Assembly (NCBI GenBank): GCA_963751455.1
Contig: CAVVUN010000009.1
Location: 320,001-384,000, forward strand
From: Nitrospirota bacterium
GTDB lineage: Bacteria; Nitrospirota; UBA9217
Reading direction: 5' to 3'
Length of the DNA stretch: 64,000 nucleotides
Shown here one piece after another: positions 36,809 through 58,735 of this stretch. Each line of letters begins with the position of its first letter. Positions within the stretch are counted from its first letter, which is position 1. Position numbers and translations under genes: made by a program. Below the pieces are notes generated by a model, which saw nothing but the letters and a program-made list of their open reading frames with translations, was not told where the DNA came from and made no database searches.

Positions 36809-36880
36809 CGTTTGTTTGGTTTGTTTAGTTTGTTTGGTTAACCAGATAAACTAAATGAACCAGATAAACCAGACAAACTG
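36809..36880. repeat. Family A 9-mer inverted repeat tract (rmlC-rmlD junction)
   Basis: RGTTTGTTT x3-4 then AACCAGAYA x4-5. Confidence 0.9.
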
Positions 36881-38877: not shown

Positions 38878-38890
38878 GAGCAGGAGAGAT

Positions 38891-40222: not shown

Positions 40223-40224
40223 GC

Positions 40225-40400: not shown

Positions 40401-40415
40401 TTTTTGGAGTAATTC

Positions 40416-41345: not shown

Positions 41346-41463
41346 TCGTCCATCGGCTACGGCAACGAGGCCCGTATCGTTAAGCGTTAAGCGGATACGG
41401 ACTGCCCAACACGAACGCCGTAACCCAACCACGAAACGGGCATCGTAACCGTGACCTTTTAAC
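41345..41463. repeat. Family B hairpin element, solo copy (uxs-kdsB junction)
   Basis: GGCTACGGCAACGAGGCCCGTATCGT ... ACGAAACGGGCATCGTAACCGTGACC imperfect inverted arms; homologous to the 51213 array unit. Confidence 0.85.
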
Positions 41464-41473
41464 TACTATTCAA

Positions 41474-42289
41474 ATGAACCGAAGCAACCAGATGAACCAG
41501 ACAAACATGACAAACCATAAAAACCAGACAATCATCGCCGTCATTCCTTCCCGCTACGGGTCAACCCGGTTCCCCGGCAAAGCACTCGCAATGATTGAGA
41601 AAAAACCGATGATCCAGTGGGTTTACGAGCGCACAAAGCGTTCTCGCCTCATTACGCGGGTAATCGTGGCCACGGATGATGAACGCATCCGTAAGGCGGT
41701 TTCCGCTTTTGGAGGAGAAGCAATGATGACGTCGGCCGGCCATGCAACCGGTACGGATAGAATCGCCGAAGTGGTCCGTAAGCTTGATTGCGATATTGTT
41801 GTAAATGTTCAGGGAGATGAACCGCTGATCCATCCGGAGATGATCGACGAAGCTGTGACTCCTCTTGTGGACGACCCCTCCATTCCCATGGGCACTGTTT
41901 GCAGAAAGATTGAACGCCGTGATGAAGCTTTTGACGCTAATGTCGTCAAGGTGGTCTTCGATCGAAACGGGTTTGCGTTGTATTTTTCGCGGGCTCCGAT
42001 CCCGTGGGATCGAGACAGCCGAACAGGGAAAATATGTTTAACTGATATGCCTCTTGCAGGCGATATGTATAAGCATATCGGCCTCTATGCGTATCAGAGA
42101 GATTTTCTTTTACAGTACGCGCGGATGCCGCAAACAGGGCTTGAAGCCGTTGAAAAGCTCGAACAGCTGCGGGCGCTCGAATCCGGACATCGCATTAAAG
42201 TGGTTGTAACGAGCCATGAATCCTTTGGTGTTGACATCCCGGACGATTTGAGTAAAATACTGCAACGCCTCAAAGAAAGAAGAGATTAG
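41474..42289 (+). CDS. kdsB: 3-deoxy-manno-octulosonate cytidylyltransferase
   Basis: [27 protein letters not shown]; N-terminus ([11 protein letters not shown]) is encoded by family A 9-mers, so the exact start is uncertain. Confidence 0.95.
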
Positions 42290-42291
42290 GA

Positions 42292-43941
42292 ATGGAAAAG
42301 AAAAAACCTCCGACAAAGTACATTTTCGTGACGGGCGGAGTCGTTTCATCGCTCGGCAAGGGGCTTGCGGCGGCGTCCATAGGCGCTCTGCTCGAGAGCA
42401 GGGGGGTAAAGGTTACCTTTCTCAAGCTTGATCCTTACATAAATGTCGACCCCGGCACCATGAGTCCGTTTCAGCACGGAGAGGTTTATGTAACAGATGA
42501 CGGCGCCGAGACCGACCTCGATCTCGGACATTACGAACGGTATACGAACGTCACGACCGGTCAGAAGAACAACTTTACTTCCGGCAGGATATATAACAAC
42601 GTAATCAGCAAGGAACGAAGAGGGGACTATCTGGGTGGAACGGTTCAGGTGGTACCGCACGTTACGGATGAAATCAAGCGCGCGATTACGGACCTCGCCG
42701 ACGATGAGGAGGTCGTGATCGTCGAGATCGGCGGGACCATCGGCGACATAGAAAGTCTTCCGTTTTTGGAAGCCATCAGGCAATTGAGATATAATCTCGG
42801 CCGGCAAAATGTCCTGTATGTCCATCTTACGCTGGTGCCGTTTATAAAAGCTGCGGATGAGCTTAAGACTAAACCAACCCAGCACAGCGTCAAGGAACTG
42901 CTGTCCATAGGGATCCAGCCGAACATTCTGGTTTGCCGGAGCGAACGGCCCATACCGAAGGAGATGAAACGGAAGATTGCGCTCTACTGCAATGTTGAAG
43001 AGAATGCCGTTATCACCGCACTGGACGTCGATACCATATACGAGGTACCGATCCACCTGCATGAGGAAGGGATCGATGACAGGATAGTCGAGTTGCTCAA
43101 TCTTACCGTATCGGACCACAACCTGAACGCATGGGAAACGATCGTCCAGCGCGTCAAGCACCCGTCAAAGAACGTTACTATAGCCCTTGTCGGGAAATAC
43201 GTTGATCTCAAAGAAGCATATAAAAGCCTGTGTGAAGCATTGACCCACGGCGGCATAGCGAACGAAGCCCGTGTCGCAATCAACTGGGTGGATTCTGAAG
43301 ACATCGAGAGCAGGGGCGCTGAAGAAATGCTGAAAGGCGCCGATGGTATTCTCGTACCGGGCGGGTTCGGAATACGCGGCGTGGAAGGTAAAATCGCGGC
43401 CGTTAAATACGCCCGGGAAAGAAAGATACCGTATTTCGGGATCTGTCTCGGAATGCAATGTGCGGTGATCGAAGCAGCCCGCAATCTTGCGGACATCAAG
43501 GATGCGAACAGTTCCGAATTTGATCAGCAGACTCCCAATCCCGTCATTTACCTGATCGAGCAGTGGTTCGATTACCGGACCCAGTCGGTTCAAAAACGCG
43601 ACACAAGCTGCGATAAAGGCGGGAGCATGCGCCTCGGTTCCTATCCATGCAACATAGAAAAGGGCACTAACGCTTATCGGGCATACGGGAAAAATGCTAT
43701 TACCGAACGGCATCGCCACCGCTACGAGTTCAATAACCGTTACACGGAAACATTAAAAAAGGCCGGACTCGTTATCAGCGGTATTTCTCCGGACGGCGAA
43801 CTGGTAGAGATCGTGGAATACAAGGAACATCCCTGGTTTCTCGGCTGTCAGTTCCATCCGGAATTCAAATCGAGACCGCGCAATCCTCATCCCTTGTTCA
43901 CGGCGTTCATCGATGCGGCGCTGAAGAATAAGAGAAAATAG
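42292..43941 (+). CDS. pyrG: CTP synthase
   Basis: [34 protein letters not shown]. Confidence 0.97.
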
Positions 43942-44063
43942 TTTGTTTAGTTAGTTTGGTTTTTTTAGTTTCTTTGGTTTGTTTAGTTTCTTTTCGTTTC
44001 TTTGGTTTGTTTAGTTTCTCTAGCTTAAGGATAACGAAATAAACCAAACAAACAAGACAAACC
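43940..44063. repeat. Family A 9-mer inverted repeat tract (pyrG-kdsA junction)
   Basis: About 9 RGTTTSTTT units then about 4 AAACCAAAC-like units. Confidence 0.9.
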
Positions 44064-44083
44064 GTTTTTTAAAGGCAATTAAT

Positions 44084-44908
44084 TTGACAAAGGAAATTCG
44101 CTTAAAAAATATCACGATCGGCGGCAATAATCCGCTCGTCTTGATCGCCGGGCCTTGCGTGATAGAATCCGAAGGAGCTGCGCTTGAAGCAGCAGCCAGG
44201 CTCAAGCGGATAACGGACGAGCTCGGCATACCGTTTATCTTCAAGTCATCCTTCGACAAGGCAAACCGCAGTTCCTTGAAGTCCTATCGCGGCCCGGGCA
44301 TGACCGAAGGCCTGAGGATACTTGCGCGCGTTGGAAGGGAATTGGACGTGCCGCTCCTGTCCGATGTCCACCGTTTCGAAGAGATAGGACCGTCATCCGA
44401 GGTTCTTGATATCCTCCAGATCCCGGCATTTTTATGCCGGCAGACTGATTTCGTTATGGATGTGGCGAAGACGGGCCGGATAGTCAATATCAAGAAAGGG
44501 CAGTTTCTTTCCCCGTGGGACATAAAAAATGCAGCTGAAAAAGCAGCGTCAACAGGCAACGATAAGATCATCATCACCGAACGCGGAGTTTCATTCGGGT
44601 ATAATAACCTCATCGCCGACATGCGCTCGCTGCCTATAATACGCGACGCGGGTTATCCCGTGGTATTCGACGCTACTCATTCGGTTCAGTTGCCCGGCGC
44701 AGCCGGAACGGCTTCGTCCGGTGACCGGAAATTCGTACCCTACCTCACCAGAGCGGCAACGGCCGCCGGCATTGATGCGTTGTTCATGGAAGTGCATGCC
44801 TGTCCGGACAAGGCGCTCTGCGACGGGCCGAACATGCTCGCACTGGACCAGCTTCCTGGACTCCTTAAGCAGGTGCGGGAAATAGACAGGATTGTAAAAT
44901 CACTCTAG
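44084..44908 (+). CDS. kdsA: KDO-8-phosphate synthase
   Basis: AGPCVIES, KSSFDKANRSS, QIPAFLCRQTD, FDATHSVQ. Confidence 0.96.
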   Translation: MTKEIRLKNITIGGNNPLVLIAGPCVIESEGAALEAAARLKRITDELGIPFIFKSSFDKANRSSLKSYRGPGMTEGLRILARVGRELDVPLLSDVHRFEEIGPSSEVLDILQIPAFLCRQTDFVMDVAKTGRIVNIKKGQFLSPWDIKNAAEKAASTGNDKIIITERGVSFGYNNLIADMRSLPIIRDAGYPVVFDATHSVQLPGAAGTASSGDRKFVPYLTRAATAAGIDALFMEVHACPDKALCDGPNMLALDQLPGLLKQVREIDRIVKSL

Positions 44909-44915
44909 TTCAGAG

Positions 44916-44994
44916 AGTTTGTTTAGTTTTTTTGGTTTCTTTGGTTTAGAACCAGATAAGCCAAATAAACCAGACAAACGACATAAACCAAAAC
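44916..44994. repeat. Family A 9-mer inverted repeat tract (kdsA-kdsD junction)
   Basis: About 4 T-rich units then about 5 A-rich units abutting the kdsD ATG. Confidence 0.9.
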
Positions 44995-45966
44995 ATGACA
45001 ATAGAACAGGCAAAAAAAGTTCTCCGGATTGAAGCGGATGCAGTCGCTGCGCTTATTGACCGGGTCGATTACCGGTTTGAATTGGCCGTAAAGATGATTC
45101 TGAACTGCAACGGCCGGGTCGTGGTGACGGGCATGGGCAAGTCGGGCCTGATAGGCAAAAAGATAGCGGCGACTCTGGCGTCCACGGGCACGCCCGCGCT
45201 CTTTCTCCATCCTGCAGAGGGAATCCACGGAGACCTTGGTATGGTTACGAGGGGAGATACCGTGATTGCCCTTTCGAACAGCGGCGAGACCGAGGAGATT
45301 GCGAGGATGTTGCCTTCCCTCAAGCGGCTGGGCATAAAAATCATTTGTTTTACCGGCAATACCGAATCAACTCTTTCAAAAAACAGCGACGTCGTAATAG
45401 ACGTCGGAGTTAAGGAGGAAGCCTGCCCGCTGGGGCTGGCGCCGACTGCGAGTACTACGGCTACCCTGGCGATGGGAGACGCATTGGCTGTGGCGCTTCT
45501 TGCACAGAGAGGTTTCAAGGAAGAAGATTTTGCCTGCTTTCATCCGGGCGGCACTCTCGGAAAAAAACTGCTTCTCAGGGTACGGGACCTTATGCATATA
45601 GGTGACGAGATTCCTGTTGTTTCGGAAGGGACTCTGATCAAAGACGCAATCTACGAAATATCTTCAAAAAAAATGGGGATCACCGCGGTATTGGACGGAA
45701 CAGGAAGCCTTGTCGGCGTCATCTCCGATGGAGATCTCCGTCGGTGGATGGAGAAGACGGAAAAGAGCGGCGAGAATCTTCTGACCAAAAAGGCAAAGGA
45801 CATCATGACCACAAAGCCGAAAGTCGCCAACAAGGACTCCCTGGCGGCAGAAGCTGTTGCAATCATGGAAAATAATTCTATCACGTGCCTTATTGTATCC
45901 GACGGCAGCGCCAAACCGGAAGGGGTCATCCATTTGCATGATCTTCTGAAGGCGGGAGTGGTTTGA
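44995..45966 (+). CDS. kdsD: Arabinose-5-phosphate isomerase (KpsF/GutQ family)
   Basis: TGMGKSG, HGDLG, SNSGET, APTAST, HPGG, two CBS domains. Confidence 0.95.
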   Translation: MTIEQAKKVLRIEADAVAALIDRVDYRFELAVKMILNCNGRVVVTGMGKSGLIGKKIAATLASTGTPALFLHPAEGIHGDLGMVTRGDTVIALSNSGETEEIARMLPSLKRLGIKIICFTGNTESTLSKNSDVVIDVGVKEEACPLGLAPTASTTATLAMGDALAVALLAQRGFKEEDFACFHPGGTLGKKLLLRVRDLMHIGDEIPVVSEGTLIKDAIYEISSKKMGITAVLDGTGSLVGVISDGDLRRWMEKTEKSGENLLTKKAKDIMTTKPKVANKDSLAAEAVAIMENNSITCLIVSDGSAKPEGVIHLHDLLKAGVV

Positions 45967-45968
45967 TA

Positions 45969-46024
45969 TGGAGCGAGCCGACCGCGTCGGCGTAAAAATA
46001 CGGCAACACGGTTGCCTTGGTCCA
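45969..46024. repeat. Inverted pair of 25-bp REP-like hairpins left of the RAYT gene
   Basis: TGGAGCGA-GCCGAC-CGC-GTCGGC-GT (45969-45993) facing the reverse complement of TGGACCAA-GGCAAC-CGT-GTTGCC-GT (46000-46024). Confidence 0.75.
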
Positions 46025-46035
46025 AAATATAATGT

Positions 46036-46578
46036 ATGGAAAAATATAAGACGTACGCTCATACGCTGCCTCATTTATATCGTGCTAATGCTAAATATTT
46101 TATAACTGCATCAACATACGAAAAAAAGAAGATTTTTGACAATGCTGCCAAAGAGAAATAGTTATCTTGTCTACTCAAAGCCTGTTTGAACCAGGGATGG
46201 GAGCTTGAAGATTGGGTCATTCTTGATAATCATTACCATATAATGGTAAACGGACCTGGCAATGAAATATTTCTTTCGAAGTTTATCGCTGAATACCATA
46301 AATTTACGGCTTTGTTTATGAAGAAAAATTATGCCGAGCTGGCAAAACTGCCAAAGGTTTTTAACAATTATTGGGATACGTGTATTACGTATGAAAGATC
46401 ATATTTTGCCAGGTTGAATTATCTATACAATAATCCTGTTAAACATGGATATGTACGGAAGGCACATGATTATGAATGGGGCAGTTTCTTTATCAGATAT
46501 AACGAAGATGAACTTTCTATAGATAAGCTGCTGAATCAGTTTCCTTGTGATACGGTTAACATAGAAGACGATTTTTAA
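46036..46578 (+). pseudogene. REP-associated tyrosine (Y1 HUH) transposase with in-frame TAG at 46159
   Basis: ATG 46036 frame reads PHLY..YFITASTY, stop, then WVILDNHYH (HUH) and YLYNNPVKHG..YEWGS; low GC. Confidence 0.85.
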
Positions 46579-46580
46579 TA

Positions 46581-46605
46581 ACGGCAACATGGTTGCCTTG
46601 GTCCA
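46581..46605. repeat. REP-like hairpin right of the RAYT gene
   Basis: ACGGCAACATGGTTGCCTTGGTCCA, 24/25 identical direct repeat of 46000-46024. Confidence 0.85.
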
Positions 46606-46610
46606 TAAAA

Positions 46611-47129
46611 ATGAAAAAATCAACCCAGAGCCTTCGAACGAAGGCGAAACAAATAAAACTTATCCTGCTTGACGTCGACGGAGTGATGACGGACGGAAGC
46701 ATCATTCTCGACAACCAGGGTAATGAAATGAAGGCGTTTCACGTGCGGGACGGCCGGGGCGTTAAACTGGCTCAAAAAGCCGGCATACTGTTCGGGATTA
46801 TTACCGGCAGATCGTCGGAAGTCGTAAACGTTCGTGCCCGCGAACTGGGCATAACCGACGTCTTTCAAGGCGCGCAGGACAAAATTACGGCATATGAGTC
46901 ACTGCTTGCGAAGTATAAACTTCGCGACGCAGAAGTGGCCTATATAGGGGATGACGACATCGACGTGTCTATCTTCAAAAGAGTGGGACTTGCCGCCACG
47001 GTAGCCGACGCGGACCCCTCCGTTAAGCCGCATGTGGACATGGTAACAAAGGCAGCCGGCGGCAGAGGCGCGGTGCGTGAAGTGATAAACCTTGTCCTCG
47101 AAAGTCAGCGTAAATTGCGGGCGTCATGA
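46611..47129 (+). CDS. kdsC: KDO-8-phosphate phosphatase
   Basis: LDVDGVMTDG, FHVRDG, ITGR, YIGDD, GGRGAVRE; ATG start chosen. Confidence 0.93.
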   Translation: MKKSTQSLRTKAKQIKLILLDVDGVMTDGSIILDNQGNEMKAFHVRDGRGVKLAQKAGILFGIITGRSSEVVNVRARELGITDVFQGAQDKITAYESLLAKYKLRDAEVAYIGDDDIDVSIFKRVGLAATVADADPSVKPHVDMVTKAAGGRGAVREVINLVLESQRKLRAS

Positions 47130-48025
47130 ACAGGTGGGCGGTTAAAACCAGGAAAAAGCTGAACAGGGTCTCTGTTCTCTGGTCTGCCAGGCTCGTCTTG
47201 ATGTTGTCGAAATTGCTGCCGTACCGTCTGGGAGTAAGAGCAGGCGGTTGTCTGGGCTGGGTCGGATACTACCTGATCCATCGTGAAAGAACAAGGGCGC
47301 TCATACACCTCCGGTCAGCATTCCCGGACAAGAGTGAAGCCTGGATACGCCGTACAGCGCGCCGCTGCTTCATGCATCTCGGGAAATCCGTTCTCGAAAT
47401 GACGCTCATGTCTCCGGTCCGGCTTGCGAAGGCATCCACGCTGGAGGGCGCCGAAAATCTTGAACGGGCATTCAGCCGGGGAAAGGGCGTCATTTACTTT
47501 ACCGGGCACGTCGGAAACTGGGAATTGTCGGGCGGCGTGCTCGCATCAAGATATCCTTTGAGCGTCGTAGCTGCTCCTCTTGATCCCGAGCCGTTAAATG
47601 ACCTGATCTTAAAACTTCGGAGCAGGATCGGGATCAGGGTCATCCTTCGGGGCAGGCCCGGGGCATCCCGGGAGCTGATACGCGTTTTCAGGGAGAACAG
47701 GATCCTCGGGCTGCTCATCGACCAGGACACGGATGTTGACGGAACGTTCGTTGATTTCATGGGAAGGCCTGCCTGGACGCCGACTGCGGCCGCCTCAATG
47801 GCGATAAAATTCGATGCGCCGGTGGTTTTCGGCTACGCCCAACGCGGCAAAGATAACAATCATACGATAACGATAGAAGGGCCGCTCGAACTGGTCCGGA
47901 CCGGCAATGACGAGCAGGATATAATCACCAACACGGCGCTGTTCACAAAAAAAATAGAAAACTCTATCATGCGGAACCCCGAGCAATGGGTGTGGATGCA
48001 CCGGCGGTGGAGGAGAATGCCTTGA
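47126..48025 (+). CDS. Lipid A late acyltransferase (LpxL/HtrB family)
   Basis: GHVGNWE, LIDQD, PEQWVWMHRRW. Confidence 0.9.
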   Translation: MNRWAVKTRKKLNRVSVLWSARLVLMLSKLLPYRLGVRAGGCLGWVGYYLIHRERTRALIHLRSAFPDKSEAWIRRTARRCFMHLGKSVLEMTLMSPVRLAKASTLEGAENLERAFSRGKGVIYFTGHVGNWELSGGVLASRYPLSVVAAPLDPEPLNDLILKLRSRIGIRVILRGRPGASRELIRVFRENRILGLLIDQDTDVDGTFVDFMGRPAWTPTAAASMAIKFDAPVVFGYAQRGKDNNHTITIEGPLELVRTGNDEQDIITNTALFTKKIENSIMRNPEQWVWMHRRWRRMP

Positions 48026-48576
48026 AAATATTTAACGTACCGAATCTTTTGTCGATCAGCAGAATACTGTCCGTGCCGATATTTATCTCGCTGATGCTCG
48101 AGCCGAATCCCGTACGGGCGCTTCTTGCAGGAATTGTTTTTTCTCTGGCCTCCGCAACGGACTGGCTGGACGGATACCTGGCGCGAAAATGGGGGCAGGT
48201 CACCAAGATCGGCAAGCTGCTGGACCCGATCGCGGACAAAATCCTGATCATGTCCGCTTTGGTCATCCTCGTTGAAATCCGGTCCGATGTGGTCCATGCC
48301 TGGATAGCGATCATTATCATCGGCAGGGAATTTGCGGTCACCGGCCTCCGTGCGATCGCATCGAGCGAGGGAATCATAATCCCTGCTGAGACTGTAGGCA
48401 AATACAAGGTGGGAGCGCAGATTACCGCGGTGCTTTCGCTTCTTCTCGATTATTATCTGGATAAAGGCTGGGTAACGGACGTCGGAAGGGTCGCCCTCTG
48501 GGTGGCGATGATTCTTGCCGTTTACTCCGCCGTCCAGTATTTCAGATCGTACTGGAGTAAGTTAAATAACCGGTGA
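48022..48576 (+). CDS. pgsA: CDP-diacylglycerol--glycerol-3-phosphate 3-phosphatidyltransferase
   Basis: NVPNLLSISR, TDWLDGYLARK...GKLLDPIADK; TTG start after AGGAG. Confidence 0.93.
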   Translation: MKIFNVPNLLSISRILSVPIFISLMLEPNPVRALLAGIVFSLASATDWLDGYLARKWGQVTKIGKLLDPIADKILIMSALVILVEIRSDVVHAWIAIIIIGREFAVTGLRAIASSEGIIIPAETVGKYKVGAQITAVLSLLLDYYLDKGWVTDVGRVALWVAMILAVYSAVQYFRSYWSKLNNR

Positions 48577-48594
48577 TTTGCGAACCATAGAACT

Positions 48595-48712
48595 TGTTTA
48601 TTTAGTTTGTCTTGTTTGTCGGGTTTATCTGGTTTGAAACCAAAGAAACTAAACAAACCAAATGAACTAAACAAACCCAACAAACCAAACAAACGAAACA
48701 AACCAAATGAAC
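48595..48712. repeat. Family A 9-mer inverted repeat tract (pgsA-plsY junction)
   Basis: About 5 T-rich units then about 8 AAACCAAAC units, the last supplying the plsY ATG. Confidence 0.9.
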
Positions 48713-49306
48713 TTCTTCTATCAACCCCTTGCCGTCATCATTTCCTATCTTATCGGAAGCACTCCGTTCGGTGTCATTTTCACGAGATTCTTTTCGGATA
48801 TCGACGTCAGGACCGTGGGAAGCGGCAATATCGGAGCAACGAATGTCCTGCGGGCCGCAGGGAAAAAGGCGGCCATACTTACTTTACTCTCTGACTGTCT
48901 GAAAGGTGTGATTCCGGTTCTTGTGGTCAAGACCCTTTTACAGGATGATTGGACAACGGTTGCCTCTGGGGCGGCCGCTGTTTTGGGTCATAATTTCCCC
49001 ATTTATCTCAAGTTTAAAGGAGGGAAGGGCGTGGCAACAAGCTACGGAGTAGTCCTTGCCATAGTTCCCAAAATAGGCGTTATCTGTCTGGTCGCATGGC
49101 TGGCTGCCGCTCTTGTCTGGCGTTATTCGTCCCTGTCCGCGCTTGCTTCCTTCGCGCTCTTTCCGCTACTGACCTTCATCACTTTCCCTGAATCCAAGCC
49201 GCTCGGTCTTCTATCTCTCTTCGTATTCGGCATGATCTATTACCGGCACCGGGAAAACATCAAGCGACTTATCGCAGGGACGGAGCCGAAGATAGGAAAG
49301 AAATAA
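48707..49306 (+). CDS. plsY: Glycerol-3-phosphate acyltransferase
   Basis: GSGNIGATNVLR, GHNFP..FKGGKGVAT, HRENIKRL..GTE. Confidence 0.95.
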   Translation: MNFFYQPLAVIISYLIGSTPFGVIFTRFFSDIDVRTVGSGNIGATNVLRAAGKKAAILTLLSDCLKGVIPVLVVKTLLQDDWTTVASGAAAVLGHNFPIYLKFKGGKGVATSYGVVLAIVPKIGVICLVAWLAAALVWRYSSLSALASFALFPLLTFITFPESKPLGLLSLFVFGMIYYRHRENIKRLIAGTEPKIGKK

Positions 49307-49315
49307 CGGTTTATA

Positions 49316-49450
49316 ATCGCCATTTCGGTCCGACGGTAACGAAGCCCGTATCGTGGAACGTCAGACGGTAACGTAAAAGACCTCATATACGACAACCGTA
49401 ACCAAAAACCAAAAGGGGCATCGTAACCCTAACCTTTTAAACCCGGCATA
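49316..49450. repeat. Family B hairpin element, solo copy upstream of four-helix-bundle gene 1
   Basis: GGTAACGAAGCCCGTATCGTGGAA ... ACGACAACCGTAACCAAAAACCAAAAGGGGCATCGTAACC..CTTTTAAACC matches the array unit. Confidence 0.85.
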
Positions 49451-49767
49451 CGTTCTCAAACTTGAGGGCAAAATGGTTGACACTAAAAAGCGCATAACGA
49501 GTTTTCGTGATTTAGAAGTTTACCAAAGCACGTATTCGATTTGTATAAAAGTAATGACTGAATTGCTGCCTAAATTGCCAGATATGGAAAAATACGATTT
49601 AAGAGACCAATTAAGCAGATCATCGAAAGCCATCCCCAGGCTAATCGCGGAAGGATATGGGAAACGGCATCAAAAAGCCGGGTTTCAAAAATATCTTGAT
49701 GATGCCATGGCAGAATGCAACGAAACCATGGTAGGTTTGGAAATGTGTCGCGATATTTATAAAAAAC

Positions 49768-51098
49768 CAGTAGTGTCCGGTTATCGTTTTTTTAATGTGC
49801 GATAACTCGCTGTCATTCAAAGATAAAAGAGACTGTATGCAACTTTTCGATTTGAACTTAATTTATCCAGAATCATCCTATAATCCACCTCATCTATGCA
49901 TGAGGAGGGACGAAGATGAATTCCGGAAAGACGGTTTTTGCTCAGCTGATCCAGCATCTACCACGGTACGAGTTCAACCAATGCGTCCTTCGTTATCACG
50001 GCAATCACAAAGTCAGAAGCTTTTCATGCATGGATCAGTTTCTCTGCATGGCATTTGCCCAGCTGACCTATCGCGAAAGCTTGCGCGATATTGTAACGTG
50101 TCTCAACTCCCATCGACCAAAGCTTTACCACATGGGCTTTCGAGGGAAGGTCGCCAAATCCACGTTGGCGGACGCCAACGAGCTTCGAGACTTCCGCATC
50201 TATCAGGACTTCGGCTATTTGCTCATCGACATCGCCAGCAAACTTTATCGGAACGAGGAGTTTGGCCTCGACCTGAAGCTCTCGGTCTTTGCGCTGGACT
50301 CAACGATCATCGATCTTTGCCTTTCCACGTTCCCTTGGGCGACGTTTCGGAAAAAGAAAGCAGCCGTCAAGATTCACACTTTGCTCAACGTGCAGGGATC
50401 GATTCCAACCTTTATTTTCGTGACTCCCGGCAGCGTTCACGATGTCAATATGATGGATACTGTCCCGTTCGAAGCCGAATCGGTCTATACAATGGATCGC
50501 GCTTACCTCGACTTCGAGCGACTTTACCAAATCGATCAACTGTCCGCGTTCTTCGTTATCAAGAGCAAAAGCAATACCCGGCTTCGTCGCGTCTACTCTG
50601 CTCCCGTGGACAAAGCCGACGGGGTGCAAGCCGATCAGACGGTTATGCTCATTGGCTACAAATCCCGCAAGGCTTATCCAGATCCATTTCGTCGGGTGCG
50701 CTATTACGACACCGAACGAAACAAACGCTTGGTGGTTCTTACGAACAATTTCCTTATCCCGGCCAAAACAGTCGCGGATATTTATCGCTCGCGTTGGCAG
50801 GTAGAGCTGTTCTTCAAGTGGATCAAGCAACACTTGCGGATCAAGTCGTTCTTCGGGACATCTCCGAATGCGGTCAAGATCCAAATCTGGATTGCCGTAA
50901 GCGTTTATCTCCTCGTGGCGATTGTCAAGAAGAGATTGAATCTGCCCGGCAGCCTCCACACAATTCTACAGATTTTGGAGGTCAACCTTTTTGAGAAAAT
51001 ACCGATTTCTCAACTGGTTGAAGACACTATCAATCACGAAAACGAATATCGCGACGATAACCAATTGAATCTATTTACGTAACAACCGGACACTACTG
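49768..51098 (+). mobile_element. IS4-family insertion sequence, 1331 bp
   Basis: 15-bp perfect terminal inverted repeats CAGTAGTGTCCGGTT; 9-bp target duplication ATAAAAAAC at 49759-49767 and 51099-51107. Confidence 0.95.
49916..51082 (+). CDS. IS4-family DDE transposase (DUF4372-type N-terminus)
   Basis: MAFAQLTYRESLRDI, DSTIIDL, MDRAY, YRSRWQVELFFKWIKQHL (YREK). Confidence 0.95.
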   Translation: MNSGKTVFAQLIQHLPRYEFNQCVLRYHGNHKVRSFSCMDQFLCMAFAQLTYRESLRDIVTCLNSHRPKLYHMGFRGKVAKSTLADANELRDFRIYQDFGYLLIDIASKLYRNEEFGLDLKLSVFALDSTIIDLCLSTFPWATFRKKKAAVKIHTLLNVQGSIPTFIFVTPGSVHDVNMMDTVPFEAESVYTMDRAYLDFERLYQIDQLSAFFVIKSKSNTRLRRVYSAPVDKADGVQADQTVMLIGYKSRKAYPDPFRRVRYYDTERNKRLVVLTNNFLIPAKTVADIYRSRWQVELFFKWIKQHLRIKSFFGTSPNAVKIQIWIAVSVYLLVAIVKKRLNLPGSLHTILQILEVNLFEKIPISQLVEDTINHENEYRDDNQLNLFT

Positions 51099-51212
51099 AT
51101 AAAAAACATATAATAGGCTTCCCAATCGATGAAACGATAGATCTCTACGACAAGGCAGGCAGACAAATATATAATCTTGCCAAAGCGTGGTCGCAGTTTA
51201 AGCGCGAAACCA

Positions 51213-51843
51213 GTAACCAAAAACCGAAACCGGCATCGTAACCTTTCAAACCGGTCATCGTCTGTTGGTGACGAAACCCGTATCGTGGAAAGCGACCTCA
51301 AACACGACAACCGTAACCAAAAACCGAAACGGGCATCGTAACCTTTTAAACCGGTCATCGTCTGTTGGTGACGAAACCCGTATCGTGGAAAGCGACCTCA
51401 AACACGACAACCGTAACCGAAAACCGAAACGGGCATCGTAACCTTTTAAACCGGTCATCGTCTGTTGGTGACGAAACCCGTATCGTGGAAAGCGACCTCA
51501 AACACGACAACCGTAACCAAAAAAACCGAAACGGGCATCGTAACCTTTTAAACCGGTCATCGTCTGTTGGTGACGAAACCCGTATCGTGGAAAGCGACCT
51601 CAAACACGACAACCCTAACCAAAAACCAAAACAGGCATCGTAACCTTTTAAACCGGTCATCGTCTGTTGGTGACGAAACCCGTATCGTGGAAAGCGACCT
51701 CAAACACGACAACCGTAACCAAAAAAACCGAAACGGGCATCGTAACCTTTTAAACCGGTCATCGTCTGTTGGTGACGAAACCCGTATCGTGGAAAGCGAC
51801 CTCAAACACGACAACCCTAACCAAAAACCAAAACAGGCATCGT
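51213..51843. repeat. Tandem array of ~6.3 near-identical 100/102-bp family B hairpin units
   Basis: Units start at 51213, 51313, 51413, 51513, 51615, 51715 and 51817 (partial); no variable spacers. Confidence 0.97.
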
Positions 51844-52060
51844 TGTACGGGACAAGGAACCGCGGGTTGAATCCGAAATTATCGATATCTTTGTAGATGA
51901 AGAGATGGAAAGCGCTGGAAAGCGGAACATCATTCACTCCGGTCATAAAAGATATCAGGGCTTTCGAATTGGAAGAGAAATTTCACACCCCGTTTTACGA
52001 AAACATCTCCAAGGAAGGGGTGCCGCTATGACCCTGGAACCAAAGGACAAAAGATCACTG
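51839..52060 (+). pseudogene. Remnant of a nucleotidyltransferase (MNT) gene plus the start of a probable HEPN partner
   Basis: IVVRDKEPRVESEIIDIFVDEEMES / GTSFTPVIKD...TPFYENISKEGVPL* broken by a 10-bp duplication (51906-51925); overlapping ATG 52028 MTLEPKDKRSL. Confidence 0.6.
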
Positions 52061-52293
52061 TTTGGTGATATCGAAGAACAGCATGGTTACTCTTGAAGAC
52101 GCAAAAGACGTTTCAAAACACAAATCTTATCTTAAGATTATCTGACCTGCTTTTACCAGTCGCTAAGAACTATGAACCCGAACTTCTGGGAAGGGTTGCC
52201 CTGCAATTCGGCAAACCGGACCGACCGGCCAAACGGGGCAGATTCGATAGATTATCCTTGCTAAAAGGATAATACTATGATAAATTGTCCGCC

Positions 52294-53616
52294 ATGGAAG
52301 GACAATTTCGCGGGATCATCCGTCAGAAAATCATAGACTCATTGGCGGAGTCCGTGCCGGAATTCACGCGCCGGGACGTACGGCTGCCTGCGGTAAAAGG
52401 GAAGGCAACGGCGGTAATCGGCATGCGCCGCACAGGCAAATCCACCTTCCTCTGGCAGGTGCTGGCAGACCGGTTGGCGCGGGGCACAGGCCGGGAGGGG
52501 CTGCTTTTCTTCAGATTCGAGGACGAGCGCCTGGCCGGCATGACCGCCGCCGACCTCCACCTGATCGTTGAGGAATACTACCGTTTGCACCCGGAATGGA
52601 GAGACAGTCGGCGGGCCGTTTTCTTTCTGGACGAGATACAGGTGGTTCCAGGGTGGGAATCCTTTGCACGCCGTCTCCTTGACACGGAAAAGGTGGATCT
52701 GTTTCTCTCCGGCTCGTCGGCGCGTCTCCTCTCACGAGAAGTGACCACGAGCATGCGCGGCCGGGCCATGGAAGCATTGGTTCATCCCTTCAGCTTCCGC
52801 GAATATCTACGGCATTTCGGTCGCGAACCAAAGCTGGGGCCGGAGCGTCTCCCCAAAGCCGCACGTTCCGCCTTGGAGAAGGATTTACGGGAGTATCTGG
52901 CAGGCGGCGGTTTTCCCGAAGCCTTGGGCGTTGCCGCACGGGACCGCTTCGAGCTTTTACGCGGGTATGTGGATACGGCGCTCCTCAGGGATGTCATAGA
53001 GCGTTACTCGGTATCGCATCCTACGGCGCTCCGCTGGATGGTACGGCAGCTTCTCGGAAGCGCCGCCGGTGCGTTCAGCGTGAATAAGTTCCACGGTGAT
53101 CTCCGGTCACAGGGGGTCCATGTTGCCAAGGACACACTGCACGCTTATCTGAGCTATTTGGAAGATGCGTTTCTGATCCGCTCGGTTTTTCTCGCGTCCG
53201 CCTCGGAACGGCGCCGGATGGTGAACCCCCGCAAGGTGTACCCTATAGACCCGGGGTTGATCCCGGTCTTCGACCGGTCGGGGAAGGCAAATCTGGGCCA
53301 CGCCCTGGAAACCTGCGTGCTGTTGGATCTCGAACGGCGGGGGGCCGAGATTTCCTATGTTCGCACCGAAAGCGGGTTTGAGGTCGATTTTCTTGCCCGT
53401 TATCCCGATGGAAAAGAGGAACTGATTCAGGTATGCGCCGATCTGGATGTTCCCAATGTTCGGGAACGCGAAGCGCGCGCCCTTACGGAAGCTGCACGCG
53501 AACATCGCAGAGCGACTTTGCACATTGTCAGCCTCGATCCGGTAATCGCGCCCGATATTTCCAGAAATGTCACGCTTCATTCGGCAGCCGCATGGCTGTT
53601 GATGGAAAAACATTAA
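52294..53616 (+). CDS. AAA+ ATPase with DUF4143 C-terminal domain
   Basis: GMRRTGKS, FLDEIQ, SGSSA, HPFSFRE, GGFPE, KVY..DPG, EVDF; higher GC than neighbours. Confidence 0.9.
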   Translation: MEGQFRGIIRQKIIDSLAESVPEFTRRDVRLPAVKGKATAVIGMRRTGKSTFLWQVLADRLARGTGREGLLFFRFEDERLAGMTAADLHLIVEEYYRLHPEWRDSRRAVFFLDEIQVVPGWESFARRLLDTEKVDLFLSGSSARLLSREVTTSMRGRAMEALVHPFSFREYLRHFGREPKLGPERLPKAARSALEKDLREYLAGGGFPEALGVAARDRFELLRGYVDTALLRDVIERYSVSHPTALRWMVRQLLGSAAGAFSVNKFHGDLRSQGVHVAKDTLHAYLSYLEDAFLIRSVFLASASERRRMVNPRKVYPIDPGLIPVFDRSGKANLGHALETCVLLDLERRGAEISYVRTESGFEVDFLARYPDGKEELIQVCADLDVPNVREREARALTEAAREHRRATLHIVSLDPVIAPDISRNVTLHSAAAWLLMEKH

Positions 53617-53933
53617 ACTCAAATTAAACTCAAATTATGCTGTTTTATGAAAACATGACATGATCGCGCGGATGTTTTAGCGTCAAGGCAACCGCAGGGG
53701 CCAATCCGGAAACTCACGAAGGCGCTGTAACGATACGAACGAAGGTCCTCAACTCCTCAAAAAGAATTAAACTCGTAACTGACTGAATCAATCAAAGCAA
53801 TCCCGGTTTTTAGCCCGGAAAAGCGCTCCTGCCCTCTGCTCCCGACTCCGCAGCAAATATATTACATTGTTATTGACATATTTTTGAAATAATATTACAC
53901 TGCCAATGGAATATTTTGGGGAGCTGCTAACGA

Positions 53934-55244
53934 ATGCAAAAAAGACAATTGCAAGAGCTGATCGGTGAACACAAGGAAAGGGCTCTCTCCGGAAAGGGTT
54001 TTATCGCAAGAGAAGCGGCTGCGGACGCAGCGCGTCTTTTCAAGGAGCGGGAGATACATATCGTTACGGGCGTCAGGCGGTGCGGAAAGTCGACTCTGAT
54101 GCGCCTCTTGATGGAAAAGCTCGTCGCCGAACAGGGGGTAAAGCAAAAAAACATCCTGTACCTGAACTTCGACGACGAACGGTTTACGGAATTTGTTTCT
54201 TCCGACTTCCAAACTCTCTATGAGTCGTTTCTTGAGATCGAGTCGCCGAAAGGTAAAAAATACTTCTTTCTCGACGAGATTCAAAACATTACCGGCTGGC
54301 ACCGGTGGATCAATCGGTTATACGAGTTCGAGGACGTCAAAATCTTTTTGACGGGTTCAAACGCGTCGCTTCTCAGCGGAGAAATCGCAACCACACTAAC
54401 CGGCAGAAACCGCGTCATCGAGCTGTATCCGTTTTCTTTCAGAGAGTTTTTGGCCGCGAGGGGATTCACAGTGAGCGCAAGAGATGCTCTTGTGTCGGAG
54501 CGAAGGGCGTTGATACGGCGGCTTCTACAGGAATACCTTACAACGGGCGGCTTCCCGGAAGTCGTGAAGACGGGAGATCTCTCTCTGCTCCAGCATTACT
54601 TCAAGGATATTCTCTATCGGGACATTATCGCGCGGTATGGCGTTAGAAATATCCGGGAGATAAAAGAACTCGTCCTGTTTCTGGCATCGAATCTTGCAAG
54701 CATTGCGAGCTATAAAAGACTGAAAGACGTCATATCGGTCAACAGCCAGTCAACGGTAAAAAACTACCTTTCCCATTTGGAGGACGTATACCTCTTTTTC
54801 GCGACCGACCTGTTCGATTACTCGTTGAAGCGGCAAATGTACAATCCCTCGAAGGTCTACTGTGTCGACCACGCGCTGGCCGGTTCCATGGCATTCAGAT
54901 TTTCATCCGAGCTCGGGAGGACCCTGGAGAACATCGTCTTTCTTGAATTAAAAAGAAGAGGGCGGGATATCTACTATTGGAAAGGGCTGAAGGGCGAAGA
55001 GACGGATTTTTTGCTGAAACAGGGAAGAAAAATAACGGCGGCCATTCAGGTATCATATGACGTAAATGCTGTTGAGACGAAACAGCGGGAATCTGTCGGC
55101 GCTGTTCAAGCGGCAAGGGAATTCGGGTTGAAAAATGCCATCGTGATCAATTCGGATTACAGCGGAGAGGAAAAATCCGGGGGTATAACAATACGCTATG
55201 TTCCACTCTGGCAATGGCTGACAACCGCAGCCTTAGAACTGTGA
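53934..55244 (+). CDS. Second AAA+ ATPase with DUF4143 C-terminal domain
   Basis: GVRRCGKS, FLDEIQ, TGSNA, YPFSFRE, GGFPE, LENIVF, ETDF. Confidence 0.9.
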   Translation: MQKRQLQELIGEHKERALSGKGFIAREAAADAARLFKEREIHIVTGVRRCGKSTLMRLLMEKLVAEQGVKQKNILYLNFDDERFTEFVSSDFQTLYESFLEIESPKGKKYFFLDEIQNITGWHRWINRLYEFEDVKIFLTGSNASLLSGEIATTLTGRNRVIELYPFSFREFLAARGFTVSARDALVSERRALIRRLLQEYLTTGGFPEVVKTGDLSLLQHYFKDILYRDIIARYGVRNIREIKELVLFLASNLASIASYKRLKDVISVNSQSTVKNYLSHLEDVYLFFATDLFDYSLKRQMYNPSKVYCVDHALAGSMAFRFSSELGRTLENIVFLELKRRGRDIYYWKGLKGEETDFLLKQGRKITAAIQVSYDVNAVETKQRESVGAVQAAREFGLKNAIVINSDYSGEEKSGGITIRYVPLWQWLTTAALEL

Positions 55245-55429
55245 ACTCAGAACAAGGCTAAGAACTGAAATTTACAATTTGCATTCGGCCGCGGCCAACG
55301 GCCGCGATATTATATATAACACCGGCAACTTGATTGACAAATTATCTTGAATTTTTCGTTTTAGTTTTTAGGTTGACTTTGTTACAAGTAATACGTATAT
55401 TACTGGTAATACCATTTCGGAGGTAAGAA

Positions 55430-55675
55430 ATGTCAACGGTAACGAAAAAAGGACAGGTTACAATACCAAAATCGTACCGCGACCGGCTCCATATCAGGGA
55501 AGGCGACAGCCTTGATTTCGAGGTTAAGGATAATCTTCTCATCCTGAAACGAAAAGAACGGAAGTCAATTCTCAGCCTGGGGGGAATCGCTCAGGGGAGA
55601 GCGAGAGGAGCAGGGAACGAACGGGAGTATGCCAAAAAAGCAGTTGCACGTAAGATTGCCGGGGAAGGCCTGTAA
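55430..55675 (+). CDS. AbrB/MazE-type antitoxin (VapB-like)
   Basis: STVTKKGQVTIPK..RDRLHIREGD motif; RBS GGAGG; upstream of a PIN gene. Confidence 0.9.
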   Translation: MSTVTKKGQVTIPKSYRDRLHIREGDSLDFEVKDNLLILKRKERKSILSLGGIAQGRARGAGNEREYAKKAVARKIAGEGL

Positions 55676-55677
55676 AC

Positions 55678-56091
55678 ATGGAAGACCCGATATTCGTGGA
55701 CACCAACGTGTTTCTTCGTTTTTTTGTCAAGGATGTTGAACCTCAGTATGAGAAAGCCGGAAGCTTATTTGAAAGAGCGGAAGCCGGAAAGCTTAAACTC
55801 GAAACGAGTGAACTGGTTATCGCCGAGATCGTGTGGGTGCTCGAATCTTTCTACGGTTTTACAAAAAAAGAAATAGTAGAAGTGCTTACTATCCTCCTGG
55901 AATCAAGAAATCTTAAAATCGAGAGCGCCTCCCGTATCGCCGCCGCAGTAGAAATCTATTCATCAAGGAACATTGATTTTATAGACGCATACAATATCGC
56001 GTACATGAAATCCAAATCGTATAAAAAAGTGGCCACATTCGATATCAAGCATTATAAAAATATCGATGGAATAATCACCACCATGAACTAA
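55678..56091 (+). CDS. PIN-domain toxin (VapC-like)
   Basis: FVDTNVFLR, VIAE, DFIDAY, ATFD. Confidence 0.9.
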   Translation: MEDPIFVDTNVFLRFFVKDVEPQYEKAGSLFERAEAGKLKLETSELVIAEIVWVLESFYGFTKKEIVEVLTILLESRNLKIESASRIAAAVEIYSSRNIDFIDAYNIAYMKSKSYKKVATFDIKHYKNIDGIITTMN

Positions 56092-56160
56092 GCGAGCCTT
56101 TATTGGGTTCGATAAACGACAAGCGGACCGGAGCAGGCGTGTAGCCTGCAGTCGCTCAGG

Positions 56161-56331
56161 GCGGAATTTCTCCAGGCAGCCGTTGAAATGGCTAAATTCA
56201 GGAATCGGTTGACTCATGTCTATTGGGAAGTTGATGATAAATTTCTCTTCCAAATTCTTCAAACACGAATGGACGATTTCGCCGTTTTTATCAAAAATAT
56301 CGCGGTTTTTCTTCAGTTAGACGCTCTTTGA
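56161..56331 (+). pseudogene. C-terminal remnant of a HepT/DUF86 HEPN RNase
   Basis: EMAKFRNRLTHVYWEVDD (Rx4HxY); N-terminal half absent. Confidence 0.75.
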
Positions 56332-56338
56332 GCTCCTT

Positions 56339-56433
56339 TGCCCTCTGCTTTTCCAACTGACAACTCCGAACTGAGAACTCAAAACTGCTTTTTGGTATTG
56401 CCCTCTGCGCTATGCCCCATGCGCTCTGCTCTT
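56339..56433. repeat. Degenerate heptamer tracts
   Basis: CCAACTG ACAACTC CGAACTG AGAACTC AAAACTG and TGCCCTC TGCGCTA TGCCCCA TGCGCTC TGCTCTT. Confidence 0.7.
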
Positions 56434-56543
56434 AAACTGGACGAAATAGTGAGGACAGGTGTTCGAAAATTTACTCTTTCGTAGTTTACTTTAGCGTCCT
56501 TTTGTCGTATATTAATCGCAACTTTCTGAAGCTATGTTCATTC

Positions 56544-56640
56544 CAAACCAAACAAACCAGAGAAACCAAATTAACCAAACAAACTCTTACGGTTTCCAAA
56601 CCAAACAAACCAAATAAACCAAACAAACCGGATAAGCCGG
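56544..56640. repeat. Family A 9-mers, A-rich arm only, upstream of four-helix-bundle gene 2
   Basis: About 10 AAACCARAN units in two blocks. Confidence 0.9.
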
Positions 56641-56647
56641 AACTGAT

Positions 56648-57076
56648 ATGAAAATAACCCGATTTGAAGAGATGGAATGCTGGAAAGAGTCAAGAAAATT
56701 AGTAGACATGATATACAAAGCCATTCAGTCAAATAAATCATTTCAGTCAGATTATCGGTTAAAAGATCAGAGTATCGGCGCTGCTGTATCAGTAATGGGA
56801 AACATCCCGGAGGGATTTGTACGACGTTCGAATAAAGAATTTATACAGTTTCTATTTATCTCGATGTCCTCTGCCGCCGAATTACAGTCTCACCTGTATG
56901 TCGCACTTGATCAGCACTATATCTCTCAGGACACCTTCTCAACAATCTATCAACAAGCTGTGAAAACATCCAAAATAGTATCCGGCCTCATTACATATTT
57001 ACGTAACAATGTCAGCGGTTCCAAACGGATTTCTAATAAACCAAACAAACCAGACAAACTAAATAAACCGGAATAA
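56648..57076 (+). CDS. Four-helix-bundle protein (TIGR02436/23S-IVP/Avd-like), intact
   Basis: RFEEMECWK, DYRLKDQ..AAVSVMGNIPEGF.R.SNKEFIQFL...S.AE..S.LYVALDQ.YI; C-terminal tail NKPNKPDKLNKPE encoded by 9-mers. Confidence 0.92.
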   Translation: MKITRFEEMECWKESRKLVDMIYKAIQSNKSFQSDYRLKDQSIGAAVSVMGNIPEGFVRRSNKEFIQFLFISMSSAAELQSHLYVALDQHYISQDTFSTIYQQAVKTSKIVSGLITYLRNNVSGSKRISNKPNKPDKLNKPE

Positions 57077-57202
57077 CCAAAATATCAAACAAACAAAACA
57101 AACCAAATAATCCAGAGCAACCAAACAAACCAAATAAACCAGAGAAACTAGATGAACCAAACAAACCAGAAAAACGAAACAAACCAAACAAACCAGAAAA
57201 AC
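57037..57202. repeat. Family A 9-mers, A-rich arm only, spanning four-helix-bundle 3' end, spacer and wzi 5' end
   Basis: About 17 AAACCARAN units. Confidence 0.9.
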
Positions 57203-58735
57203 ATTTTTATTAACTTATTCGCCATACTAACCGTCCTATGCTTCTCAACAACCATCCACGCCTCAACATATATAGCCATTGAGGATACTATCGTTTACGA
57301 CCTCCTGAACAAGCTCGAAGCCGAAAGCGTTATCCAATCCGGTCTTCTCAATACCAAACCGATCAGCAGAAAGGAAGCGTTTCGGCTCCTTCAAGAAGCA
57401 GAAGCGAATTCCGAATCCCGCAGCGAATTTATAAAAAACTTGATCCGGACACTTAAGGATAGGCTGGGACCGGATCCATCAAGTGGAACGCAATTAAAAC
57501 CGATTGATTCAATCTATGCAAAATATATCCATACCAATGCGGAAGTTCATACACTGAAATATGGCGAGTCCATTCAAAATCAACAACCGTTTAACTACAA
57601 CAACAACGGAGATCTCTATCAGCGCGGATCAAATGAGAGGATCGGTTTTACGTCGCGGTTGGAAAACTGGGGACCGCTTTCGCTAGAAGTAAACCCGGAA
57701 TTCCGCTATCCCGACACGCCCTTTACCAATCAAGACCTGGTCACCAGGAAGGCCTATGCAGTCCTGGACCTCGGATGGGACGTTGTCCTCGGACAAGACT
57801 CCCAATGGTGGGGTCCCGGATACCATGGCGCTTTGCTGCTATCGAACAACGCCGAACCCTTTACCATGCTCAAGATATCAAATCCCAGCCCTGTCCGCCT
57901 TCCCTGGATTTTCGACAGCCTAGGCCCATTCGGGTTCACGTTCTTTGTTACAAACCTGGAGAAAGCGAGAAAAATTCCGGAACCGTATTTATACGGCATG
58001 AGGTTCGACTTTAAACCGCATCCCAACGTTGAAATCGGTCTGCAGAAGACCGCGTTTCTCGGTGGACGAGCAGGCCGTCCCGAAAATGCCAAGATATGGC
58101 TGCAGAGTTTGTATGGTGCGAATGATGCTGATAACTGCTACGCCGGAGAGGGCTGCTATAAAAAGGAGCCCGGTGACCAGCGGGCGGGGATCGACTTCAA
58201 GCTTACTGTTCCTTGGAATGTTCAGCCGATGCAAATCTATCTTGAAGCCGACGGAGAAGACGAATACCACAATCTGCCGAACCTCTGGGCGTTTATCGGA
58301 GGAATCTACCTGCCCAGGATATTAAATGAAGAGCGTCTCGATTTCAGGATGGAATACACAACTACGCGGGGCAGAAAGAGGAACCCTTATATCTGGTATC
58401 TTCATCACCTCTATTCAGGCTATACTTACAATGGGAACATTATCGGCCATCATGTAGGCACCGACGCTAATGACTTTTTCAGCGAGGTTTCGTATTTAAT
58501 GCAAGAGAGAACCGGTAAAATTTCCCTGTCATATCATAGGGAAGAGCACGACATTTACATCCCGGGAAGCCACGAAAGATTGGAGGATATTACTGCAGGA
58601 ATTATTTTGTCTTTAATGAAACAGATCGATTTAGTAACCCGTTATAGCCGGGGATGGCTGAAAAACAAGGGTAATGCACCAGGTGATACAGTCAATCTCT
58701 TGAAATTCGGGATCGGAATAGAGTATCGATTTTAA
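57152..58735 (+). CDS. wzi: Capsule assembly Wzi family outer-membrane protein
   Basis: QWWGPGYHGALLLSNNAEP, GMRFDFKP, GDQRAG.D, IGHHVG.D, terminal F; repeat-derived N-terminus precedes the signal peptide. Confidence 0.85.
   Translation: MNQTNQKNETNQTNQKNIFINLFAILTVLCFSTTIHASTYIAIEDTIVYDLLNKLEAESVIQSGLLNTKPISRKEAFRLLQEAEANSESRSEFIKNLIRTLKDRLGPDPSSGTQLKPIDSIYAKYIHTNAEVHTLKYGESIQNQQPFNYNNNGDLYQRGSNERIGFTSRLENWGPLSLEVNPEFRYPDTPFTNQDLVTRKAYAVLDLGWDVVLGQDSQWWGPGYHGALLLSNNAEPFTMLKISNPSPVRLPWIFDSLGPFGFTFFVTNLEKARKIPEPYLYGMRFDFKPHPNVEIGLQKTAFLGGRAGRPENAKIWLQSLYGANDADNCYAGEGCYKKEPGDQRAGIDFKLTVPWNVQPMQIYLEADGEDEYHNLPNLWAFIGGIYLPRILNEERLDFRMEYTTTRGRKRNPYIWYLHHLYSGYTYNGNIIGHHVGTDANDFFSEVSYLMQERTGKISLSYHREEHDIYIPGSHERLEDITAGIILSLMKQIDLVTRYSRGWLKNKGNAPGDTVNLLKFGIGIEYRF

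Follow-up and report, generated by a model that had tools for sequence, protein, structure and literature searches.

A tandem array of hairpin units that starts inside the 3' end of a four-helix-bundle gene is, at a probability of about three in four, a gene-less hairpin that was reiterated by recent local amplification and that has no dedicated function. Judged from sequence comparison, the array unit is a hairpin of the kind that encloses the clade of four-helix-bundle genes to which this gene belongs, in its gene-less form. The array alone is a relic, and the parent cassette (the gene together with the hairpin arms around it) is of more importance: PF05635 proteins occur commonly and lack an explanation, and one clade of them is linked here with a single specific hairpin in many phyla. 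A defined protein together with a defined RNA or DNA ligand gives a handle on four-helix-bundle function and on IVS-like spread outside rRNA.

The array and its locus

The window (the whole stretch of DNA that was analysed, 64,000 nucleotides from a Nitrospirota bacterium) carries the array at 51208-51843, where TRF reports a period of 100, 6.3 copies and 95% matches (score 1164), in agreement with the roughly 6.3 near-identical units described in a first-pass annotation of this DNA. The features to which we refer are as follows.

41359-41452, + strand: dispersed gene-less hairpin copy
48707-49306, + strand: plsY, the conserved gene upstream of the insertion
49333-49430, + strand: complete gene-less hairpin ahead of the gene, the copy most similar to the array unit
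49473-49767, + strand: four-helix-bundle gene, 5' part (PF05635, TIGR02436)
49768-51098, + strand: IS4-family insertion sequence with 15-bp terminal inverted repeats (transposase 49916-51082)
51108-51241, + strand: four-helix-bundle gene, 3' part, its last codons encoded by the right arm
51208-51843, + strand: tandem array, period 100-102, 6.3 copies, arm order R (L R)x5 L R-truncated
51224-51245, + strand: right arm over the four-helix-bundle stop codon (TAA 51239-51241), which in homologues closes the stem around the gene
51265-51345, + strand: gene-less hairpin 1 (left arm 51265-51286, right arm 51324-51345)
51365-51445, + strand: gene-less hairpin 2
51465-51547, + strand: gene-less hairpin 3, with an A-run longer by two bases
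51567-51647, + strand: gene-less hairpin 4, its right arm with two stem-breaking substitutions
51667-51749, + strand: gene-less hairpin 5, a copy of hairpin 3
51769-51843, + strand: hairpin 6, a copy of hairpin 4, its right arm cut off at the MNT junction
51839-52031, + strand: nucleotidyltransferase (MNT) remnant, 5'-truncated and frameshifted, which ends the array
52028-52096, + strand: 22-codon stub after the MNT remnant

The four-helix-bundle gene that had been placed before the array is indeed there, but it is split by the IS4 element, which is 1331 bp long and bounded by a 9-bp target duplication (49759-49767 and 51099-51107). Downstream of the element, the frame at 51101-51238 shares 65% identity with the C-terminal end of an intact homologue. 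This disrupted gene is the only cognate four-helix-bundle gene in the genome. An identical copy of the IS4 element lies on contig C1 with a different target duplication. (Note that a third IS4 copy, in two pieces approximately 136 nt apart, is found at G000:C11:40651-42121.)

The array units start at 51214, 51314, 51414, 51514 (102 nt), 51616, 51716 (102 nt) and 51818 (partial). As had been reported, the first unit includes the stop codon of the gene, which sits in the first right arm, the arms pair imperfectly at 15 of 19 positions, and the last unit abuts a 5'-truncated MNT gene, the remnant of which corresponds to an intact 107-aa homologue in G006 from residue 48 on. The description of the array as spacer-less needs a correction: in hairpin phase an invariant 19-nt linker follows each 81-83-nt hairpin. 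Approximately 5 bases at the junction between array and MNT remnant are common with the right arm; we infer that a deletion joined the two, and the array may therefore once have been longer. The stub that follows may be HEPN-like, judged by its position in the operon layout only.

Differences between units amount to six substitution types and one A-run change. The variation had been described as lying mostly in the A-run and a few substitutions, which is correct; what can be added is that all changes are confined to approximately 36 nt around the right arm. Three of the substitutions fall at right-arm stem positions without a compensating change. The six array copies do not differ in left arm, loop or linker; there are no variable spacers, and a CRISPR array was accordingly rejected. 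The amplified unit, as seen in hairpin 1, is without an 18-nt inner left segment that the upstream copy (49333-49430) has. Units 4-5 recur as units 6-7, exactly up to the break, and TRF finds a second period of 202 bp (97%) over the array, consistent with the recent unequal expansion that the first-pass annotation had proposed. (Note that four of the six substitution types at 51214-51843 hit the G of a CG pair, and that the substitution at position 13 also occurs in the upstream copy; gene conversion or sequencing error could be behind this.)

It is highly improbable that the array is an assembly or consensus artefact in which only one or two real units were inflated. Such an artefact would fit the confinement of the differences, including the A-run change, to the same short segment, and the exact repetition of units 4-5 as units 6-7. 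Moreover, the copy number rests on one assembly: none of the 24 listed sequencing runs covers the array or has half its words, and the four of them that were mapped gave coverage of the IS and of scraps of related hairpins only. Against this stand the five distinct unit types in the array, the contiguity of the assembly (15 contigs of up to 1.72 Mb), the occurrence of similar runs in unrelated assemblies, and the fact that the two identical 1331-bp IS copies were resolved with different target duplications, which argues that the reads were longer than the array.

The unit belongs to a dispersed hairpin family

The array unit is a member of a family of imperfect palindromes of approximately 100 nt, and the three loci at which the repeat was originally noticed expand to about 25 dispersed copies in the genome. 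An HMM of the family, made from 23 seed copies that match it by construction, gave 33 non-overlapping genome matches, of which seven belong to the array and 26 to other places; the reversed genome gave no match. Family copies are intergenic, mostly inside operons, and only 55-72% alike; the upstream hairpin (49333-49430) has 72% global identity to the array unit, other copies 69% or less. We take the neighbours of the copy at 41359-41452 to be a UDP-sugar decarboxylase-like gene and a kdsB-like gene; these names, like all neighbour gene names apart from the domain-scanned ones, are our reading of the translations. No target duplication was seen by eye at the dispersed copies, in a comparison from which clean empty/filled junction pairs from close strains were absent.

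A covariance-model search of genomes, which had been suggested at the outset, found the family in 14 of 40 relatives (12 of the 24 within the same family). In none of these 14 relatives was the cognate four-helix-bundle gene found, which argues that empty hairpins persist without the gene and may serve a host function. When 27 relative hairpin loci were examined, the HMM matched at 26, and 21 of the 26 hairpins are oriented with the flanking genes. Because none of the 26 lies at a junction that bears a family hairpin in this genome, the positions are lineage-specific. At the plsY junction in relatives, a family hairpin occurs in one of 29 loci (a single reversed copy) and an array in none of the 29, two of which end at the plsY stop.

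At 8 of 11 orthologous junctions with the hairpin family in relatives, this genome has a different palindrome family with at least 14 of 20 paired bases; the background to this figure, based on crude ORF calls, is that 405 of the 1045 co-oriented junctions whose gaps measure 60-300 nt reach such pairing, versus 126 in shuffles. Examples are G000:C2:579740-579942, C1:681017-681098, C15:1501239-1501375, C12:454276-454410 and C9:360222-360415 (window 40222-40415). The same junctions seem to be reused by interchangeable palindrome families.

The hairpin encloses one clade of four-helix-bundle genes

At homologous loci the parent cassette begins with a left arm, continues with the PF05635 gene and closes with a right arm that extends over the stop codon. 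The two 22-nt arms are complementary, with mismatches at fixed positions. From 178 confirmed homologous loci 79 were kept, which by record title come from many phyla, and 77 remained once two with short flanks had been dropped. The left arm lies at most 90 nt before the start in 55 of the 77 and the right arm around the stop in 52, with both present in 41; in control windows each arm was found in 4 of 427. Because the arm matrices had been refined on these same 77 loci, the count was repeated on metagenome loci (80 kept of 503, or 62 after removal of a duplicate of L031, of identical genes and of short flanks). In this set, which is outside the training, the left arm was found in 46/62, the right arm in 47/62 and both in 34/62, and the plain layout of left arm, gene and right arm in 33/62. 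Four-helix-bundle genes of other clades have an arm in none of 10 cases, and there are no arms at G004 and G020, the two best distant four-helix-bundle matches in relatives, which also belong to other clades.

Arms of the same locus pair at 16.84 of 22 positions, versus 15.76 +/- 0.17 for shuffled partners (0 of 2000 shuffles, 69 distinct pairs), in a cross-phylum test that is inflated and confounded by relatedness. Compensatory arm changes occur at positions 8, 14 and 20, and the mismatches at positions 6, 11 and 18 are conserved across phyla. Wobble counts (G-T 44, A-C 30) indicate no strand preference for folding.

An HMM built from gene-less copies only matches the gene's 5' flank with positions 4-49 and the gene's 3' end with positions 49-102, and 66 of the 93 3' matches begin inside the ORF. 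Since the two halves of this model map to the 5' flank and to the last codons and 3' flank of the gene, the empty hairpins are the cassette without its ORF. Of the interpretations offered by the first-pass annotation, that of an amplified element end is the one that gains support, the unit being such a gene-less form.

The cassette is poorly understood and probably selfish. We found no catalytic mobility gene linked to it, a search of viral contigs against the protein alignment yielded 148 candidates of which zero were confirmed, and a plasmid search with one array unit gave no match. Nor was a description of the element outside rRNA found in a search of the open-access literature.

The predicted structure of the protein (pLDDT 86) matches 2GSC (TM 0.71/0.84), 2RLD and, more weakly, Avd (4DWL, TM 0.60/0.75; 8UB8, 0.61/0.74; E about 0.5). 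Its score against the Avd family NF033474 is 13.2 bits, versus a cut-off of 80. There is no reverse transcriptase domain among the 12 neighbouring ORFs scanned, and no TR/VR pair was seen beside the gene. According to 10.1101/2023.10.23.563531, the Avd pentamer of a Bordetella phage DGR binds an RNA stem-loop with flipped-out bases and serves the reverse transcriptase.

Duplications are enriched beside the gene

Duplications of the hairpin are enriched at gene-bearing loci. In 17/79 genome loci and 19/62 metagenome loci the gene has a further complete hairpin no more than 700-800 nt away, and at least three arms occur within 800 nt in 24/62 metagenome loci, among them runs of seven and four right arms and of four left arms. 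One locus, L038, has the layout of the window (hairpin, gene, right arm, hairpins), and L095 and L085 carry tandem runs of 110-125 nt at 83-91%, in L095 on both sides (124 nt x 2.8, 91%). As for the question raised at first pass of whether similar arrays lie near homologous genes, extra hairpins do, in numbers between 0 and a few units that are not conserved. None of the other loci examined has as many whole hairpin copies as the window array, or copies as uniform. At distinct gene-less hairpin loci of 8 relatives in which the cognate gene was not found, 0/105 have a neighbour within 700 nt; this control used a different detector (the covariance model) on fragmented assemblies, in which near-identical repeats may collapse. 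That duplications are concentrated beside the gene is a usable clue to the mechanism of spreading.

One tandem pair in this genome lies away from the cognate gene, at G000:C9:406744-406966 (L019), where two diverged family hairpins (406744/406863) stand in tandem and no four-helix-bundle gene is present. Beside them is an oppositely oriented small gene pair that we take to be a PIN-domain toxin-antitoxin pair. Separately, L204 has a near-identical R-L-R block on either side of its gene (81-233 and 727-877), which suggests a very recent duplication or integration. At L187 (2500-2941) and L190 (2536-2735), seven and four right arms are repeated in tandem with a period of approximately 66 nt and diverged intervening sequence; these runs lie 137 nt after the cognate gene and superficially resemble a CRISPR array.

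One explanation for this clustering is that the reiteration is the footprint of spreading itself, with an Avd-like protein and a reverse transcriptase or recombinase acting in trans copying or re-inserting the hairpin at its own locus. This would be akin to TnpA-REP, which has been proposed to amplify BIMEs, and BIME-2 is likewise homogeneous within a locus and variable in number (PMC3333891). The explanation would also account for extra arms at gene-bearing loci and for the R-L-R block on both sides of the gene in L204, and it draws on the stem-loop binding by which Avd serves a reverse transcriptase (10.1101/2023.10.23.563531). We nevertheless regard it as rather unlikely: no reverse transcriptase is among the ORFs scanned next to the array, no family hairpin has any of the 33 Y1-transposase matches within 2.9 kb, the genome contains further short tandem arrays that look non-coding, and a pre-existing direct repeat suffices to seed ordinary slippage.

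Folding and transcription of the array

Although the repeat was introduced as a hairpin unit, single array units fold no better than shuffles (z 0.41, -0.47, 0.34 and -0.81, not significant). They are among the weakest folders of the family, with a mean z of -0.10/-0.61 versus -1.76/-2.18 in 25 dispersed copies. The own-genome copies (n=24) are 74% paired, versus 23-41% in slid controls; covariation among these 24 copies is not above that in shuffles (475/500), and RNAalifold recovered only a 4-bp stem and not the long one. A scan of 38000-58000 against Rfam gave 24 sub-threshold matches, with zero in the array and no rRNA match. Promoter-like sites number three, versus 3.8 expected by chance, and two sigma-70-like ones lie before the array; a terminator scan, also at chance level, showed no terminator-like site after it. 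In one contig from an RNA run, 40 nt agree with a unit apart from 5 differences; this says nothing about expression of the array.

A functional multivalent RNA (a scaffold, a decoy or a processed small-RNA array), which the first-pass annotation had listed among its readings, would serve the pentameric four-helix-bundle protein or some other protein. Five complete hairpins do match the five chains listed in the 2GSC and 2RLD entries, the arm mismatches at 6, 11 and 18 are conserved, and the array lies on the sense strand behind the two sigma-70-like sites. Weighing against this, the unit is degenerate with uncompensated stem substitutions and folds poorly, the number of units beside homologues is not conserved, the cognate gene is disrupted by IS4, promoter-like sites are at chance, and no Rfam family matches the array. 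The scaffold or decoy proposal is thus weak, and we consider a multivalent RNA very unlikely.

The comparison with type III antitoxin repeats fares worse, and we judge the array almost certainly not to be such an antitoxin. What the two have in common is approximately six tandem units, the last one partial, followed by the remnant of a toxin-antitoxin-type gene pair; like toxI, cptI and tenpI, the array is made of short near-identical units without variable spacers. Published type III units, though, are of 31-62 nt and stand upstream of a terminator and a toxin gene (PMC3401426). Here the unit is 100 nt long and belongs to a dispersed family, no terminator follows, and what comes next, across a break, is an MNT fragment in place of an intact toxin gene. 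(The ToxN family PF13958 has no match in the genome, nor in any control genome, so that this search was uninformative.)

A proposed origin of the array

Recent local amplification of a gene-less hairpin could have proceeded in four steps. First, the cassette would have entered the plsY junction. Second, an arm-mediated duplication may have produced the complete hairpin on the upstream side and, on the downstream side, a right arm together with a hairpin. Third, one downstream copy would have lost 18 nt and been reiterated by slippage or unequal recombination, the last amplification event probably being a two-unit step of 202 bp. Finally, a deletion would have fused the last unit to the MNT gene, and IS4 would have inactivated the four-helix-bundle gene. 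By analogy, the parent cassette may be IVS-like, with arms that pair in the transcript and a stem that is probably both an RNase III substrate and a binding site for an Avd-like pentamer; its spread would likely have been via recombination at existing hairpins.

We also put forward, tentatively and as a fairly unlikely generalization, that the cassette represents an undescribed class of selfish elements without a nuclease or transposase of their own. In such a class an Avd-like pentamer would recognise its own mismatched stem, borrow a reverse transcriptase or recombinase in trans and target pre-existing hairpins at operon junctions. If true, this would explain the empty copies, the arm duplications beside the gene and the swapping of palindrome families across lineages at shared junctions, and arrays like that in the window would be a snapshot of reiterative copying.

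Comparison with known systems

Several known systems resemble the cassette, the array or both. The ORF-bearing 23S rRNA IVS of Coxiella burnetii and Leptospira (S23p/PF05635; PMC4990558) has a protein of the same family and fold. It likewise places its ORF within terminal inverted repeats that form an imperfect stem, of 28 bp there and with a core of 22 bp here, and its distribution is, like that of the cassette, sporadic (PMC4990558). Unlike the rRNA IVS, the cassette is located at junctions of protein-coding operons, in the window between plsY and the MNT remnant, the homologous loci inspected are flanked by protein genes, and the cassette has many ORF-less copies and tandem runs.

The closest architectural analogue of the array is BIME-2 (PMC3333891). 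REP, BIME-2 and REPIN sequences (PMC3333891, PMC3733652) are also dispersed intergenic palindromes with two inverted arms and linkers, in part in tandem clusters, and tandem BIME-2 copies are homogeneous within a locus and diverse between loci. The REP/RAYT system shares with the cassette a single-copy cognate gene that is flanked by its own repeats, and repeats that persist in genomes without the gene. Unlike TnpA-REP (RAYT), the cassette has as its cognate gene a non-catalytic four-helix bundle and not an HUH transposase. REP arms carry a GTAG tag, which is not apparent in the cassette arms; by eye, a CGTC word precedes many copies. CGTC REPs have stems of 8-9 bp and loops of 4-5 nt, whereas the cassette arm has a 4-bp intra-arm stem in this genome. 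In 30 diverged arms, the intra-arm stem is 17% paired versus 58% for arm-to-arm pairing, the small arm hairpin being lost on divergence. A link to RAYT was rejected on the distance between family hairpins and PF01797 (Y1) matches (0/33 within 2.9 kb).

With Avd of diversity-generating retroelements the protein shares a related fold, and Avd, as a pentamer, binds a stem-loop that immediately follows its own gene region (10.1101/2023.10.23.563531, PMC10053308). Unlike in a DGR, the protein scores far below the Avd cut-off, and neither reverse transcriptase nor TR/VR was seen beside the gene. MITEs as a class are similar in that the gene-less copies resemble what an internal deletion would leave of a gene-bearing element. 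They differ in that the hairpin family has fuzzy ends and lacks a transposase, in that its copies are only 55-72% alike, and in that no target duplication was seen by eye.

Other repeats and genes in the window and genome

Tandem arrays with a unit of 58-59 nt, 3.8-5.9 copies and 95-99% matches are present at G000:C14:28102-28320, C15:1572029-1572367 and C15:1354290-1354540, the first two being related to each other. At G000:C2:320750-320950, a four-helix-bundle gene is interrupted by a different palindromic element. In the window, the array is followed at 52285-56091 by an accessory region with two AAA_14-DUF4143 ATPase genes and a MazE/AbrB-PIN pair, and then at 56648-57076 by a second four-helix-bundle gene, of another clade, which is flanked by 9-nt tandem repeats (region 56544-57195). 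Similar 9-nt arrays occur at 35238-35337, 36810-36878, 40237-40401, 43939-44019 and 48637-48707. At 46087-46578, between kdsD-like and kdsC-like genes, is a Y1 (RAYT-like) gene whose match is interrupted by a stop, and the four-helix-bundle hairpin cassette of L174 is apparently at the same kdsD-like/kdsC-like junction.
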